DNA of 16,424 bases from Candidatus Ratteibacteria bacterium (GTDB lineage: Bacteria > Ratteibacteria > UBA8468 > B48-G9 > DTJG01), in assembly GCA_049971295.1 (NCBI GenBank), contig JBMFLH010000040.1, forward strand, positions 1 to 16,424, in the 5' to 3' direction. The notes beneath the pieces were generated by a model. It saw only the letters and a program-made list of their open reading frames with translations. It ran no database searches and had not been told where the DNA came from. A program made the position numbers and the translations under genes. Positions 1 to 16,206 of the stretch are shown piece by piece. The stretch's first letter is position 1, and each line of letters begins with the position of its first letter.

Positions 1-19
1 TCAAATCCCTCACCCTCCG
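1..19 (+). tRNA. 3' end of a tRNA, probably tRNA-Ser (cut by the window start; CCA not encoded)
   Basis: TCAAAT (T-loop 55-60), CCCTC (3' T-stem), ACCCTCC (3' acceptor strand) and G discriminator give exact tRNA geometry. U70-C71-C72-G73 matches tRNA-Ser acceptor identity. A T-rich tract follows (20-32). The anticodon is outside the window. Confidence 0.7.
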
Positions 20-35
20 TTTTTTCTTCTTTGAA

Positions 36-283
36 AGGGATTTGAACTGGAGCGGTGCTGGTGCGAGGAAGAACGAGCACTGTATAGCACAAAGGGCGAG
101 AAGGTGAGCCCGTTGACCGAAGCGTAGTGTGCAAGACGATGTATAAGTCCGAGCAAGCGAGGACTTATGCGGCTGGTTGCCAGTGCGATGGAGAAAGAGC
201 ACTGATTGGCAAGCCTGCCGAGAAGGTGAGGCAGGCCGGATCGACCCGAGCCGTAGTGGGCCCGAGGGCGCTCAAATCCCTCA
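36..283 (+). repeat. GC-rich structured non-coding element (putative ncRNA or REP/MITE-like element) with terminal inverted repeats and an internal duplicated hairpin module
   Basis: AGGGATTTGA (36-45) is complementary to TCAAATCCCT (272-281). Hairpins at 55-90, 94-111, 141-170, 177-212 and 213-236, plus weaker ones at 113-134 and 241-265. CGAGAAGGTGAG is repeated at 97-108 and 219-230. Confidence 0.75.
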
Positions 284-525
284 TCGGTGACCTTCCCAAG
301 TTTTTTCTATCCTTGCTGGAGAGGATACATGTGATGGGTGTCTTTGAAGAAACCATTATCTTGAAGTTTTGCAACATGTTTTTGTTTTCGCTAACAAAAT
401 GGATGCTGAGGACTTTCCAAAATTTAATTTGACCAGGTCAAAAAAAACTGTAAACTATTCTTGAAATCGATGCGTAATCGTATGTTTTAGTACAATCCAT
501 ATATCATTCAGGCGAATAGAAATTT

Positions 526-1011
526 ATGAAAATTTTTCCTGAAAATTGGCGTGTTGCTTTACTGAGAACAACTTGCGTAATAATATTGTTGATTGTAACA
601 AGAATCTATTTTATCCAGTGGTTTCGTGCATTTGGCATGAGCATGGAACCCACAATAAAAGATGGTTCAATAGTCCTTGTTAATAAACTTGCTTACAGAT
701 TCCATTCTGTGAAAAGAGGCGATATTGTCATTTTCAGGACCTCGAATAGACCCTATGTTTATTTTATCAAAAGAGTAATTGCCTTTTCAGGAGAAATTGT
801 TGAGTTCAAAAATGGACAACTCTATATCAATGGACATGAAGTATCTGAGATCTATCTTGCCGAAAAAGGAAACTGGGATGTGAAACCATTTACTGTGAAA
901 CAACATCATATCTTTGTATGCGGAGATAATAGATTGACTGACTGGGATGCCCACTTTCATCCTCAAATTTCAACCAAAAATATTATTGGCAAAGCCATTG
1001 GTTACAGATGA
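526..1011 (+). CDS. lepB: signal peptidase I (S26 family)
   Basis: One N-terminal TM segment, GMSMEPT (catalytic Ser), RGDIVIF, FIKRVIA (catalytic Lys) and GDNR box. Confidence 0.92.
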   Translation: MKIFPENWRVALLRTTCVIILLIVTRIYFIQWFRAFGMSMEPTIKDGSIVLVNKLAYRFHSVKRGDIVIFRTSNRPYVYFIKRVIAFSGEIVEFKNGQLYINGHEVSEIYLAEKGNWDVKPFTVKQHHIFVCGDNRLTDWDAHFHPQISTKNIIGKAIGYR

Positions 1012-1536: not shown

Positions 1537-1552
1537 ATACAATATATTGCGA
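1537..1552. promoter_or_regulatory. NrdR box 2
   Basis: ATACAATATATTGCGA keeps the CwAtATaTwG core. It starts 32 bp after box 1, the typical tandem NrdR box spacing, and abuts the nrdR ATG. Confidence 0.85.
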
Positions 1553-2031
1553 TGAAATGCCCATATTGCGGTTTCATGGAAGACCGTGTAATTGACTCGA
1601 GAGAAAGTGAGGATGGTTTGCAAATACGTAGAAGAAGGGAATGTTTGCGTTGTGAAAAAAGATTTACCACTTATGAAGAAATTGAAGAAAAACCATTGAT
1701 TGTAGTCAAAAAAGATGGAAGAAGAGAAAAATTCAATAGAGAAAAAGTTTTTAATGGAATCCAGCGAGCATGTGAAAAAAGGCCAATCAGTACAGAACAA
1801 ATTACAACGATTGTTGACGAACTTGAACAGGAATTGAAGCAGAGGTTTGAAAAAGAAGTGTCATCAAAGGATATTGGTGAAATGATTATTGAAAAACTTC
1901 GTAAACTTGATGAGGTTGCATATGTCCGTTTTGCTTCAGTATATAGACAGTTTAAAGATGTTTCAGAATTTCAAAAAGAAGTAGAAAACATAAAAGGGGC
2001 TTATCATGACCCAGGGAATAAACACCAGTAA
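1552..2031 (+). CDS. nrdR: transcriptional repressor NrdR
   Basis: MKCPYC...VIDSR...IRRRRECLRCEKRFTTYE zinc ribbon, ATP cone (VVKKDGRREKF) and LDEVAYVRFASVYRQF. Confidence 0.98.
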   Translation: MKCPYCGFMEDRVIDSRESEDGLQIRRRRECLRCEKRFTTYEEIEEKPLIVVKKDGRREKFNREKVFNGIQRACEKRPISTEQITTIVDELEQELKQRFEKEVSSKDIGEMIIEKLRKLDEVAYVRFASVYRQFKDVSEFQKEVENIKGAYHDPGNKHQ

Positions 2032-4363
2032 AATTGAATTCATTCAAAAAAGAGATGGCAGAATTGTTCCTTTTGAAAAGGCAAAAATAGCAGAAGCGAT
2101 TTTTAAAGCAGCACAGAGTGTTGGAGGCCAGGACAGGTATCTTGCTGAAGACCTTGCAGAAGCAGTCACGGTTTATCTGAACAAAGAATTTAAAGGGAAA
2201 ATTCCAACTGTTGAAGAAATTCAGGATATCGTGGAAAAGGTTTTGATAAAAACAGGACATGCGAAAACAGCCAAGGCATACATTCTTTACAGGGAGAAAA
2301 GAGCAAGAATAAGACAGATTAAGCAGGGAATCATTGAAAAAGCCATTCTTGAAGAACAACAGGAAATTGCAAAAATAAAGGAATCTACAGACCTGAGTCT
2401 TTTTGTAAGGACCAGTGGTGAGGATATCGTTTTATGGGATATTGAGAAAATTGTGGATTCACTGGTAAAAGAGACAGGTATTGAACGAAATGTTGCTACT
2501 TTTATAGCCACAGAGGTGAAAAAGGAGATTATCGCATCAAAGGTGAAAAATCTTACAGCTCCTTTAATCAGAGAGATGGTAAATGCTAAACTGGTTGAAT
2601 TTGGCATGGAAGAGGCAAGAAGAAAATATACCAGGCTTGGATTGCCATTGTATGATGTAAAAAACATTATTTTCAGTCCGAACAAAGAAAATGCAAATAT
2701 TCCTCATAATCCTGAAGCAACCAACCTGACATTGGCAGAGCAGATAAAAAAAGAGTTTGCACTACTTGAGGTTTTTTCTCCGGAAATTTCAGATGCACAT
2801 CTGAGTGGAGATTTACACCTGCATGACCTTGGATTTATTGATAGGCCATATTGTTCAGGGCAATCCCTTGAATACGTGAAAAAATTCGGGCTACATCTTC
2901 CCAACGCCCTTTCAATTGCAAAACCAGCAAAGCATCCTGAAACCCTTCTTGCGCACATGGTGAAATTTTCCGCTGCTCTTCAGGGACATTTCAATGGCGC
3001 AATTGGATGGGATGCTGTCAACATATTTTTCGCTCCATTCCTTGAAGGTGCATCTGACAAAGAAATGAGACAGCTGGCTCAAATGCTTATCTATGAATAC
3101 AGCCAGCAGGCAGTTGCAAGAGGTGGACAGGCAATTTTCAGCGATATCAATCTGTACTGGGAAATACCGGACCATTTCATTGATGTGCCTGCGATAGGTC
3201 CTGGGGGAAAAGAAACCAGGAAGAAATATGGGGAATATCAGCAAACCGCGCAAAGATTCGCAAAGGCGCTTTTTGAGGTTTACCTTGAAGGAGACGGCAT
3301 AGGGAGACCGTTTTTCTTTCCCAAGCCGCTTCTTCACATCACAAACAGATTTTTTCAAACACCTGGTCACGAGGAATTTCTTGAATTTGTCAGCCTTGTG
3401 GCAGCAGAAAAGGGCAATACCTATTTTGTTTTTGACAGGGATAATACCGCAAGAATCAGTGAATGTTGTAGATTGTCATTCAAGCTTGAAGCATCCGATA
3501 TAGAAGACGCTAAAACCCCATGGAAAATGAGGTTTTCAGCCCTGCAGAATGTAACATTGAATTTACCGAGGGTTGCATACAACTCCAATCACGATGATTC
3601 CAAACTTTTTCAAAATCTTGAGAACCTGATGAATCTTGCAGTCAAAGCTCATATGGCGAAGCGGCGCTTCATAGAGACACTTCTATCGTACGGTCAAAAC
3701 GGACCTCTTGCGCTTCTAACCATGAACCTTGACGGCGAACCATATTTGAGAATGCACAGAGTGACTCATCTGATAGGACTTCTTGGTCTCAATGAAATGG
3801 TTCAATATCACACAGGCAATCAACTGCATGAATCTGACGATGCCTTTAAGTTTGGGCTGAAGGTAGTGTCGTTCCTAAAAATTTTGTGTGACCGCAAGAC
3901 AAAAGAAACAGGATTGAGATTTGTACTGGAACAAACACCAGCAGAATCAACCGCACACCGACTTGCAAGATTGGATTATGAACACTTTCCTTCACAGAGT
4001 GCCCAGGTATTAAAAGGAACCATGCCGGATAAGGTTTATTACACAAATTCCACATATCTGAATATTTCTGAGCCACTATCTCCTATAGAAAGGGTTAAAA
4101 AAGAAGGAATTTTTCATCCTCTTATTGAAGCAGGCGCTCTTACTCACATATGGCTTGGTGAGAGTAAACCAGACGCAAAGGCACTATCAAACTTTGTCGT
4201 CAAGGTATTTCAGCATACGAAAAATGCTCAGATTGCTTTCAGTCCAGAATTTACCTCGTGTCTTGACTGTGGAAGGGTTTACAGAGGCATTTCAAAAGAA
4301 TGTCCATGGTGTTCCACGGTAAATAAAGGTGTAATAAAAATAAATGCACAACAAAACAGTTGA
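2006..4363 (+). CDS. nrdD: anaerobic (class III) ribonucleoside-triphosphate reductase, catalytic part lacking the C-terminal glycyl-radical domain
   Basis: Two N-terminal ATP cones, AHLSGDLHLHDL, RPYC (C283), SECCRL finger loop (C487/C488), NVTLNLPR, EQTPAES, YYTNS and a CLDC...CPWC zinc site. The stop comes before any RxxGY motif. Confidence 0.95.
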   Translation: MTQGINTSKIEFIQKRDGRIVPFEKAKIAEAIFKAAQSVGGQDRYLAEDLAEAVTVYLNKEFKGKIPTVEEIQDIVEKVLIKTGHAKTAKAYILYREKRARIRQIKQGIIEKAILEEQQEIAKIKESTDLSLFVRTSGEDIVLWDIEKIVDSLVKETGIERNVATFIATEVKKEIIASKVKNLTAPLIREMVNAKLVEFGMEEARRKYTRLGLPLYDVKNIIFSPNKENANIPHNPEATNLTLAEQIKKEFALLEVFSPEISDAHLSGDLHLHDLGFIDRPYCSGQSLEYVKKFGLHLPNALSIAKPAKHPETLLAHMVKFSAALQGHFNGAIGWDAVNIFFAPFLEGASDKEMRQLAQMLIYEYSQQAVARGGQAIFSDINLYWEIPDHFIDVPAIGPGGKETRKKYGEYQQTAQRFAKALFEVYLEGDGIGRPFFFPKPLLHITNRFFQTPGHEEFLEFVSLVAAEKGNTYFVFDRDNTARISECCRLSFKLEASDIEDAKTPWKMRFSALQNVTLNLPRVAYNSNHDDSKLFQNLENLMNLAVKAHMAKRRFIETLLSYGQNGPLALLTMNLDGEPYLRMHRVTHLIGLLGLNEMVQYHTGNQLHESDDAFKFGLKVVSFLKILCDRKTKETGLRFVLEQTPAESTAHRLARLDYEHFPSQSAQVLKGTMPDKVYYTNSTYLNISEPLSPIERVKKEGIFHPLIEAGALTHIWLGESKPDAKALSNFVVKVFQHTKNAQIAFSPEFTSCLDCGRVYRGISKECPWCSTVNKGVIKINAQQNS

Positions 4364-4392
4364 ACAATTTTTACACTTAATGAGGAGGGAAG

Positions 4393-4710
4393 ATGGAAAG
4401 AAGTAAATTTATCGAGCATCTGAAGAAGTATCCTCACCTTTACCAGGTTGAGGAAAAAAATGATGATGGTTATTCAGGGATTCTTGTTCAGGATAAGGAG
4501 TATAACACCCTAACATTTTTTACTGATGAAGCCATCAGAGAAGGAGAACTTGTTGAACTGTTGAAACAGACACACCAGGGGAAAAATGTTGAATGGATTA
4601 GCAGGGTCACAGGATACTTTTCAAAGATTAATTCCTGGAACAAGGGGAAACGAGAAGAATTTAAGGATAGATACAGGTCACGCAATATTGGCGCAGGTGT
4701 TAAAGAATAA
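4393..4710 (+). CDS. stand-alone NrdD glycyl-radical domain protein with an extra ~60-aa N-terminal region
   Basis: NVEWISRVTGYFSKINSWNKGKREEFKDR is the NrdD C-terminal glycyl-radical motif (Gly74, 4612-4614). Strong RBS GAGGAGG at 4382-4388. Confidence 0.9.
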   Translation: MERSKFIEHLKKYPHLYQVEEKNDDGYSGILVQDKEYNTLTFFTDEAIREGELVELLKQTHQGKNVEWISRVTGYFSKINSWNKGKREEFKDRYRSRNIGAGVKE

Positions 4711-14811: not shown

Positions 14812-16206
14812 TTATATTATGGTTTGTTCTGATTTACCCTGAAATCTAAAAGAAAGACCGTGCTCTGTCTTTTCCCAGAAGTGGGGTTTTGTAAATAACT
14901 GAAAAAATCCTTTCCATGCACCTGCGCTGATTAGCACCCAGTATAACGGAGATATCAATGTCTCTGGAATCAGGTATCTGTAAGAACGGCGAAGGCATCC
15001 CAGCACATTTAGCAAAACAAAAATTCCATTGCTTATCAGCAGTACCCATGTAATCAGATCTGCTGTTGGATAGAAAAACCCAGAAAGAAATTTTCCTTCA
15101 CTGCGTACAAACCACATTCCTGTGATAATCCAGTATACTGGATTGAAAAGAAGTGTAATAAAAAGTCCTGCCACAGTAAGTTGAAAGCTGAAAAAATTAA
15201 TCAGTCCCATTCTTTTGATAAGAAAATATGGTCTTCGCATGTGCACACACCATGTCTGAATATAGCCCTTCACCCATCGTGAACGCTGCCTCAACCAGTT
15301 AGAAAGTTTGCTGTTGGCTTCTTCCCATGTGGTGCTATCAAGAACGCGTGTTCTGTACCCTTCCCTGAAAAGCCGTATCCCAAGATCACAATCTTCAGCA
15401 ACATTATATGGATCCCATCCGCCGACCTTTTTCAGGTATTCAGTTTTGAAATGATTGGATGTACCACCAAGTGGAATGGGCGCATTCAATCCATCAAGCC
15501 CGGGCAGATACAGGTCAAACCACATTGAATATTCAGAAGTAAACCATCTTGTAATTAAGTTTTGCCTTGGATTGTAATAGTTCAATTTTGCCTGAAGACA
15601 TGCTATGGATTGGTCATCAATCCGTCTGAACGCAATGACACTTTTTTTCAACTGGTCAGCATCAGGAATATCCTCTGCATCATATATCACAAGATATTCT
15701 CCGGTTGCTCTGGAAAGCCCGATATTGCATGCCTTTGGTTTTGTCCTCGGAAAAGAATCAGGGACAATAACAATATCAAAAAAATATGGAATTTTCATTT
15801 TGCTTAATGCTTCCTGCATTGTTTGATCTGTTTGTTCAACAAGTAGTTTCACATCAAGTTTGTCCTGTGGATAATCAATTTGATTGATTGCCGTAATCAG
15901 TTGTGAAAGGATGTTTGTTTCTCTGAACACAGGAAGAAGAATTGTGTAGACAGGAAGAGAATTTTCGTCAAGATTTTGTATTTCAGAACTATCAACGATG
16001 ATTTCCTGTTTCTGCATAAATCCCACAAGCACCATAAAAAACTTGTAAAGAATTGTCACAAGGTAGAAGACGCTTATGAGAAGATTTACAGTAATAAAGA
16101 AGGTTTTTCCATAATAGACAGAACAGCACAAACACACACCAAGCAAAATAATTCCTGTGCGCTTCTGTCTCTGGTCAAGAGTGATTCTGGCATCGTCTAT
16201 CATCAT
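14812..16206 (-). CDS. membrane GT2 glycosyltransferase (cellulose-synthase-like D,DxD,D,QxxRW)
   Basis: YTILLP, PRTKPKACN, YDAED, GGTSNHF, AEDCDLG, QRSRW, WEKTEHG; N- and C-terminal TMs. The start is uncertain: ATG at 16206/16203 is preferred over the TTG at 16263. Confidence 0.9.
   Translation of the reverse strand: MMIDDARITLDQRQKRTGIILLGVCLCCSVYYGKTFFITVNLLISVFYLVTILYKFFMVLVGFMQKQEIIVDSSEIQNLDENSLPVYTILLPVFRETNILSQLITAINQIDYPQDKLDVKLLVEQTDQTMQEALSKMKIPYFFDIVIVPDSFPRTKPKACNIGLSRATGEYLVIYDAEDIPDADQLKKSVIAFRRIDDQSIACLQAKLNYYNPRQNLITRWFTSEYSMWFDLYLPGLDGLNAPIPLGGTSNHFKTEYLKKVGGWDPYNVAEDCDLGIRLFREGYRTRVLDSTTWEEANSKLSNWLRQRSRWVKGYIQTWCVHMRRPYFLIKRMGLINFFSFQLTVAGLFITLLFNPVYWIITGMWFVRSEGKFLSGFFYPTADLITWVLLISNGIFVLLNVLGCLRRSYRYLIPETLISPLYWVLISAGAWKGFFQLFTKPHFWEKTEHGLSFRFQGKSEQTII

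Follow-up and report, generated by a model that had tools for sequence, protein, structure and literature searches.

Locus and unit anatomy

The first 271 bases of the window, by which we mean the whole 16,424-nucleotide stretch analysed here (contig JBMFLH010000040.1 of the Candidatus Ratteibacteria assembly GCA_049971295.1), hold a complete tRNA-linked repeat (TLR) unit on the forward strand, enlarged by two nested modules and 95.7% identical over 256 bp to a unit behind tRNA-Leu(TAG) on contig C18. This element is a real and widespread variant of a known but unexplained kind of repeat, with measurable clues to its movement. A sequence-only reading of the window had pointed to copies of a tRNA T-arm at 1–12 and 272–283 and to an antisense copy at 36–47, and these lie far above chance: the 12-mer TCAAATCCCTCA occurs at 1–12 and 272–283 (2 matches versus 0.01 expected; 0 of 200 shuffles), and its first ten letters (1–10 and 272–281) recur on the minus strand at 36–45 (3 matches versus 0.09 expected). 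What had been taken for the T-loop and T-stem of a tRNA at 1–12 is, however, a repeat copy, and ARAGORN detects no tRNA in the window. The window starts where its contig starts, its first 55 bases being the end of contig C28 in reverse reading; all 14 contig-end overlaps found in the assembly are 55 bases long. C28 carries, in this order, tRNA-Ser(TGA), one 127-bp unit and the 55-mer shared with the window. Thus, positions 1–19 are a second copy of the tRNA-Ser(TGA) 3′ end (T55–G73, 19 bases, identical to the tRNA tail on C28 and without CCA) and not the gene. The expectation of a tRNA immediately upstream therefore fails for the directly adjoining sequence, a repeat copy, and holds for the real tRNA-Ser(TGA) 127 bp further upstream on C28. 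Judging from the contig sequences, window positions 1–271 are the second unit of an array behind that tRNA. Relatives (L005, L006, L043 and L054) have tRNA, unit and longer unit on a single contig, and the signal peptidase I gene downstream of and outside the element (526–1011, forward strand; PF10502, E 4.8e-37) is a conserved neighbour, also found downstream of the array in relatives L002 and L009. Several assembly breaks and one N gap fall inside tRNA-linked units (contigs C12, C28, C38, C46 and C107), so that unit counts from short-read genomes are lower bounds.

Units of this family follow a general plan. They open with the tRNA tail, taken from T55 or C56; next come a spacer rich in T, the antisense T-arm, a short linker and GAGCG, and then two core hairpins (H1 and H2), with GAGGGCGC as an example of the right end. 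In the window, with all features on the forward strand, the tail is followed by the T-rich spacer (20–35), whose end portion TTCTTTGAA recurs behind other tRNAs by sequence comparison, and by the antisense T-arm (36–47), the reverse complement of tRNA positions 53–64 as recognised by folding, the minus-strand match and family covariation. The left junction (46–54), delineated by alignment and register covariation, consists of a 6-base bulge (46–51) and GCG (52–54); by its letters, the bulge opens with two bases that complement the target pair lying 5′ of the inferred crossover, and a pairing of GCG with CGC at 269–271 is possible, in columns that barely vary. Nested module M1 (55–138, approximate boundaries), two hairpins with tandem GA pairs, is missing from the 127-bp basic unit on C28. 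Core hairpin H1 (139–172, stem 142–150/161–169), closed by tandem GA, was placed by folding and alignment, and is followed by nested module M2 (177–241, approximate boundaries; repeat family D1), a paralog of M1 with 74% identity over 53 bp. Core hairpin H2 with the right junction GAGGGCGC (243–271) is supported by compensatory changes, 74 on both sides versus 3 on one side over seven pairs in 57 units (57 of 67 candidate units entered the alignment). A third, truncated tail copy (272–283), recognised by the 12-mer match, spans tRNA positions 55–66 and is longer in L002 and L009.

M1 and M2 come and go independently, and modules are found inside repeated tRNA tails as well (L036 and L065). M1 also occurs without a tRNA (L012–L021), in the loop or arm of palindromes of the CCCTCTCCC...GGGAGAGG type in another family of the phylum; this tRNA-free form is present in many copies per genome, far from tRNAs, and looks like a second, nested mobile unit. 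At the other extreme, L148 is a minimal 51-bp unit that has lost its core, with GAGCG directly joining the repeated tail.

Folding and the case for a host RNA

As the sequence-only reading had foreseen, folding joins 36–45 with either copy of the T-arm (1–10 or 272–281). The claim that the whole stretch 36–47 is complementary to both copies stands for 36–45 only, since letters 46–47 (AC) find partners solely in T54 and G53 of the true tRNA gene. Tandem GA pairs and C-GNA-G loops are especially stable in DNA. Across 67 dereplicated cores, stem-GA...GA-stem motifs number 70 versus 7.9 in shuffled sequence, with none on the opposite strand, and CGNAG is enriched (154 versus 87), whereas the RNA tetraloop form C-GNRA-G is not (37 versus 69).

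Alternative pairing had suggested a maturation switch in the trailer of a CCA-less tRNA. More generally, the unit could act as host RNA, a trailer or small RNA cut from the tRNA precursor in which the tail would be a processing signal and the arm would fold the RNA or tune maturation. We regard this as quite improbable. At this locus the cloverleaf survives in the best RNA fold, in which the arm is paired with the distal copy, and the motifs sit on the tRNA-sense strand only; moreover, according to the accessible text of PMC8144298 and PMC4986893, RtT RNAs have been detected, 5S-linked TLRs bind Hfq and CsrA, and the authors propose an RNase E signal. Over the family, however, the distal copy gives no rescue, the T-arm being kept in 125 of 249 folds without it and in 82 of 166 with it, and 61 of the 249 host tRNAs encode CCA. 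The distribution speaks against a host RNA too, with patchy, tandem, truncated and empty alleles, units missing from the same tRNA in some genomes and modules inserted into the repeated tail itself, as do the lack of RNA tetraloop enrichment and the reported retraction of the rtT phenotype (PMC8144298, in its accessible part).

An antisense arm fitted to each host tRNA

We compared arms with the tRNAs that precede them. A pattern search returned 294 distinct matches, of which 249 are tRNA-linked, covering 41 isoacceptors. In 230 of these 249 units the arm is the exact complement of its own tRNA at both T-loop positions left free by the pattern (57 and 59), so that trailers co-varying with their own T-arm, a point that the sequence-only reading had proposed to check, do accompany other tRNA genes, and the ends of homologous elements are related to the adjacent tRNA. 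Permuting hosts within two overlapping subsets leaves means of 38 against 142 of 154 observed and of 29 against 113 of 121, and pattern matches away from tRNAs are complementary in only 13 of 38 cases. Past the fixed pattern, complementarity reaches position 63 in 210 of 249 units, 64 in 129 of those 210, 65 in 83 of 129 and 66 in 30 of 83 (expected counts 123, 57, 44 and 22, respectively), decaying over positions 63–68 in a manner resembling a copied tract. Where the T-stem has a G-T wobble pair, the arm letter is A in 42 of 50 cases and G in 2, and thus the arm mirrors the tRNA 3′ strand and is not a copy of the 5′ strand. Targets are nearly uniform at position 62, with C in 234 matches and another base in 3; among the tRNAs of this genome, C62 is found in 37 of 45 and another base in 8 of 45.

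Crossover point and register

Of 167 units, 134 begin their repeat at position 56 irrespective of an encoded CCA, which rules out a start set by a ruler from the RNA 3′ end; the 3′ boundary of the repeat is ragged, from 73 onward. The crossover is therefore sharp and lies inside the tRNA gene, whose 3′ end is restored. Counting only units with a CGC-like right end, a repeat start at 55 goes with a three-letter linker beginning with C, the complement of G53, in 17 of 17 units, versus 0 of 99 starting at 56. The window unit belongs to the shifted register (start 55). Whichever the register, the pair of letters following the duplex is complementary to the target's two bases on the 5′ side of the crossover, and GCG comes after a bulge that mostly measures six bases. 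A second unit class (L028, L030, L025 and L400), sited at the same tRNA ends, with unrelated cores and ends of the GGGATGG...ACAATCCC type, starts its repeat at 58 as in Escherichia coli, and can occupy the same array as the 56 class.

The distance from arm to target is about 15 to 42 bases, mostly 27–39, and bears on the possibility that the units are minimal relics of ordinary integrase islands, attL and attR left behind after deletion of the island, with the arm a recombinase half-site on double-stranded DNA. A precedent exists in the ssrA islands of Dehalococcoides (serine recombinase DsiB), which, as far as the available text of PMC3146451 goes, integrate at tRNA/tmRNA genes with a crossover at mid-T-loop, as we infer here, and leave a 20-bp 3′ repeat; also, a restriction-modification islet (L033) ends in a partial core plus repeat. 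We nevertheless hold this origin to be distinctly unlikely: such a spread of distances is suited to fold-back rather than to a duplex site, many tRNAs are served by a single core, and no full-size parent was seen in the 259 loci and regions examined. The Dehalococcoides islands furthermore carry genes, target one RNA gene and have no antisense arm described in that text, whereas the present unit is a gene-less 271 bp, with no integrase or cargo between its tail copies, and its genome has no serine recombinase.

The L033 islet (15031–18680) measures 3.3 kb, lies behind tRNA-Ser(CGA) and holds a helix-turn-helix regulator, a DNA methylase and two further genes; it terminates in the partial core and a tRNA tail, and its left end is like the tRNA-Ser(GGA) trailer on contig C112 of the genome studied here.

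Spread and signs of mobility

By the E. coli definition, a TLR follows a tRNA or rRNA gene and closes with an 18–19 bp copy of the 3′ end of that gene. In agreement with it, the window unit places a copy of the tRNA tail behind a tRNA gene (19 bases at 1–19, the distal copy having only 12), and units number one to several per locus, with several loci per genome: two at this locus, and a perfect arm of at least 9 bases behind 8 of the 45 tRNAs of this genome, with imperfect arms, judged by eye, behind four more. The tail repeat of the family mostly runs from position 56 to 73–77. Window DNA finds matches in 31 of 41 genomes. The left-end pattern is present in 41 of the 65 genomes examined from the phylum, with 234 matches altogether, and has none in reverse reading. 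A scan of GTDB genomes for this left end gave at least 119 loci, 73 of the first 80 of which adjoin a tRNA, labelled Ratteibacteria, Omnitrophota, Desulfuromonadales, Planctomycetes, Spirochaetes, Ruminococcus and a Woesearchaeote; a metagenome scan gave at least 121 matches. Several scans of viral collections yielded 0 matches. Ten viral matches from other scans, among the matches listed, lie within reading frames and have no repeat, and were rejected; another viral scan gave 120 matches, 22 of them complementary and none a unit, and one with the E. coli-type motif gave 16, mostly prophage ends beside chromosomal repeat arrays. A blastn search of 25–283 against plasmid and phage collections found no match, and GC skew beside tRNAs shows no pattern.

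Within the genus (41 units compared), cores follow the genome and spacers the locus. Of 44 pairs from the same genome and different tRNAs, 13 have cores at least 90% alike, versus 2 of 47 pairs that share the tRNA but not the genome and 18 of 437 other pairs; the corresponding spacer value by locus is 0.60 versus 0.40 and 0.38. Behind Ser(TGA) and Arg(CCG) the basic core shows no difference over 80 bases, and the Leu(TAG) unit that so closely resembles the window unit differs in its arm at a base fitting that tRNA. Relatives have tandem arrays of units, copy number varies, and truncated and empty alleles occur. One empty allele is at tRNA-Tyr of this genome, which has no unit, whereas six relatives, selected for matching the pattern, carry one to three units between the same two tRNAs; E. 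coli tyrT offers another, and the empty alleles that the sequence-only reading had proposed to look for thus exist. The second model of that reading, in which a miniature element targets tRNA genes and duplicates their 3′ ends, agrees with the host-matched arms, the sharp start, the tandem and empty alleles and the shared cores.

These data also allow an account that dispenses with a dedicated enzyme, in which template switching during replication, at the quasi-palindrome of the T-arm, both creates the arm and perfects it. Gene conversion, or slippage between the short GAGCG and CGC ends, would spread the cores, and unequal crossing-over between the direct repeats would lengthen and shorten the arrays. 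The exact complement with its decaying tract length, the homogenisation of cores within a genome, the collapsed coreless unit L148 and the failure to find an enzyme (see below) would all agree with it. Left unexplained are the fixed C56 start, the joint one-base register shift of both ends, the conserved compensatory hairpins and the arrival at 41 isoacceptors in several phyla, and we consider this account unlikely.

Proposed mechanism

The sharp start, variable arm distance, strand bias and register shift together find their simplest reading in a folded single strand with a splint. We therefore propose that the window family is a non-autonomous element of the TLR/RtT type that inserts into the T-loop of tRNA genes, rebuilds them, and moves as folded single-stranded DNA with its antisense arm as splint, a proposal to which we assign a probability of roughly one half. 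The active form would be the tRNA-sense strand, the arm holding the C56–C62 strand. On integration, the letters after the arm would pair with the target's two bases on the 5′ side of the cut (AA against T54–T55), and for circle formation GCG, past the 6-base bulge, would instead pair with the core's own CGC end. A single strand exchange followed by replication would then give tRNA, unit and displaced tail. At a new host tRNA the arm would be rewritten, most plausibly by fold-back copying that takes the host strand as template. An enzyme acting in trans is assumed, and by analogy both HUH-type and tyrosine-type chemistry would be compatible.

Several results weigh against this proposal. The search pattern itself fixed positions 53–56, 58 and 60–62, and the 17 units in the shifted register carry arms of Ser(TGA) and Leu type from few lineages, kin and not independent. 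G-T pairs make up equal shares of core stem H1 (39 of 810) and of tRNA T-stems (30 of 645), which gives no favour to DNA over RNA, and E. coli TLRs are transcribed and processed, as stated in the accessible text of PMC8144298 and PMC4986893. A K-12 mobilome study (10.1101/2024.07.17.603846, in the part available) reports raised coverage at tyrT, and reads RNA-gene signals as heteroduplex artefacts without discordant reads. No circle or joint appeared in one DNA read run, which supplied three short contigs only; the short read contig over the element belongs to the Leu(TAG) locus. As to the enzyme, a gene-bearing unit was absent from 80 GTDB loci, 159 further matches and 20 regions, and this 92% complete genome contains no reverse transcriptase (RT), serine recombinase, resolvase, Cas1 or DUF559. 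Y1 and IS110 transposases occur in 4 of 14 and 3 of 14 family genomes, respectively, versus 14 of 14 for the element.

None of the 30 Y1 loci contains a core and no core lies beside IS110 transposases. The candidates Y1, IS110, RT, serine recombinases, Cas1 and DUF559 were accordingly rejected as absent or not tracking the element, and two XerC/D-like recombinases, a candidate label, were rejected on account of their housekeeping context. GIY-YIG gave a single match. A lone gene for a 227-aa Y1 transposase (IS200-like, RAYT-type) is found at L353:1228–1911 with no core of this repeat family nearby, and two IS110-family transposase fragments (L427 and L428) lie at contig ends of this genome.

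Relation to known systems

tRNA-linked repeats were reportedly described in E. coli as early as 1978. A 2021 paper (PMC8144298) defines the class as TLRs and, in its accessible text, gives it no known function, and the literature we searched, which left most subscription papers and the two original TLR papers outside, gives no account of an antisense arm in TLRs or of their mobility. The 178-bp repeats of E. coli tyrT–tyrV (RtT RNA, rttR, RF00391) are, like the units studied here, tandem units behind tRNAs that end in a tail copy, with a tail copy from 58, a stretch antisense to 59–68 and a hairpin core. The RtT model has 16 matches in K-12, every one of which follows a tRNA-Tyr, -Pro, -Lys, -Ser or -Arg gene and combines a hairpin core with 5–10 bases antisense to its own tRNA; 8 of the 16 arms continue as GA-GAA, facing G57-A58 and then pairing with 54–56, and 2 of 16 read through the T-loop like the window family. 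E. coli repeats start at 58 (10 of 16) or 59 (6 of 16), as opposed to 56 or 55 in the window family. Over 40 listed records E. coli tyrT has 0 to 4 annotated RtT copies, with none in 6. By sequence comparison, then, the window family has the same design as RtT/TLR in another register, and it is not RtT by model: the RF00391 covariance model gave 0 matches in the genome at E ≤ 1 and none in window 1–600 at E ≤ 10, and our own, weak model of the window family reached E 0.99 at best on six E. coli loci. Rfam had no match of note in window 1–600, 14 diverse loci returned tRNA families only, and 11 further loci returned tRNA, 6S and weak matches only. Two further candidates fell away, a weak sX4 match being based on the tRNA itself and TwoAYGGAY having no match at gathering score, nor does the accessible part of its preprint tie it to tRNA ends. 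The 5S-linked repeat of the E. coli rrnB terminator region (L611:225–335) has no antisense stretch to the 5S tail; it has an internal hairpin, CAAATCC / GGATTTGAAC, resembling T-arm plus arm of the window family, followed by an RtT-like core.

Other mobile DNAs share parts of this design. Integron attC sites, CTX-phage attP, IS200/IS605 ends and REP/RAYT systems use strand-specific bulged hairpins, short guide pairing near the cut and a trans-acting enzyme. Here, by contrast, the duplex is built of host tRNA sequence and no such enzyme tracks or adjoins the element; in particular, we see no Y1 gene flanked by and co-occurring with the repeats, as REP/REPIN systems would have. For the casposons of Aciduliprofundum boonei, the available text of PMC5137440 describes a target that includes the tRNA T-loop and a repeat made on insertion; that duplication is a fixed 15 bp overlapping only 5 tRNA bases, with terminal inverted repeats and Cas1, whereas this genome has no Cas1 and the repeat end is ragged. 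A retroelement, or one like a short interspersed element, finds no RT match here, a start at 56 irrespective of CCA and no CCA at 1–19.

E. coli lacks the variation offered by the window family, in which arms are refitted to 41 tRNA types, the crossover is fixed and both ends move together when the register shifts. With this variation the old TLR question becomes directly testable, also in E. coli. We tentatively suggest, as something that may well turn out otherwise, that tRNA-linked repeats (E. coli RtT, this family and the archaeal copies) form one superfamily of minimal mobile DNAs, each with its own splint-guide that is rewritten at each new tRNA and moved by a trans-acting single-strand recombinase, nested modules using the same machinery. 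If a folded DNA guided by its own antisense arm is indeed what moves, a recombinase retargeted through base pairing awaits discovery, and annotations of RtT-type "small RNAs" may mark mobile DNA.

Further features of the window

Downstream of the element, the window carries at 1552–4710 what its sequence suggests are an nrdR-like regulator and a gene that resembles an anaerobic ribonucleotide reductase and contains an ATP-cone repeat. The latter stops at 785 aa, and a short open reading frame downstream of it resembles its missing C-terminal part. Finally, two tandem 21-base copies of repeat family D6 lie at 15929–15970 within a glycosyltransferase-like open reading frame.
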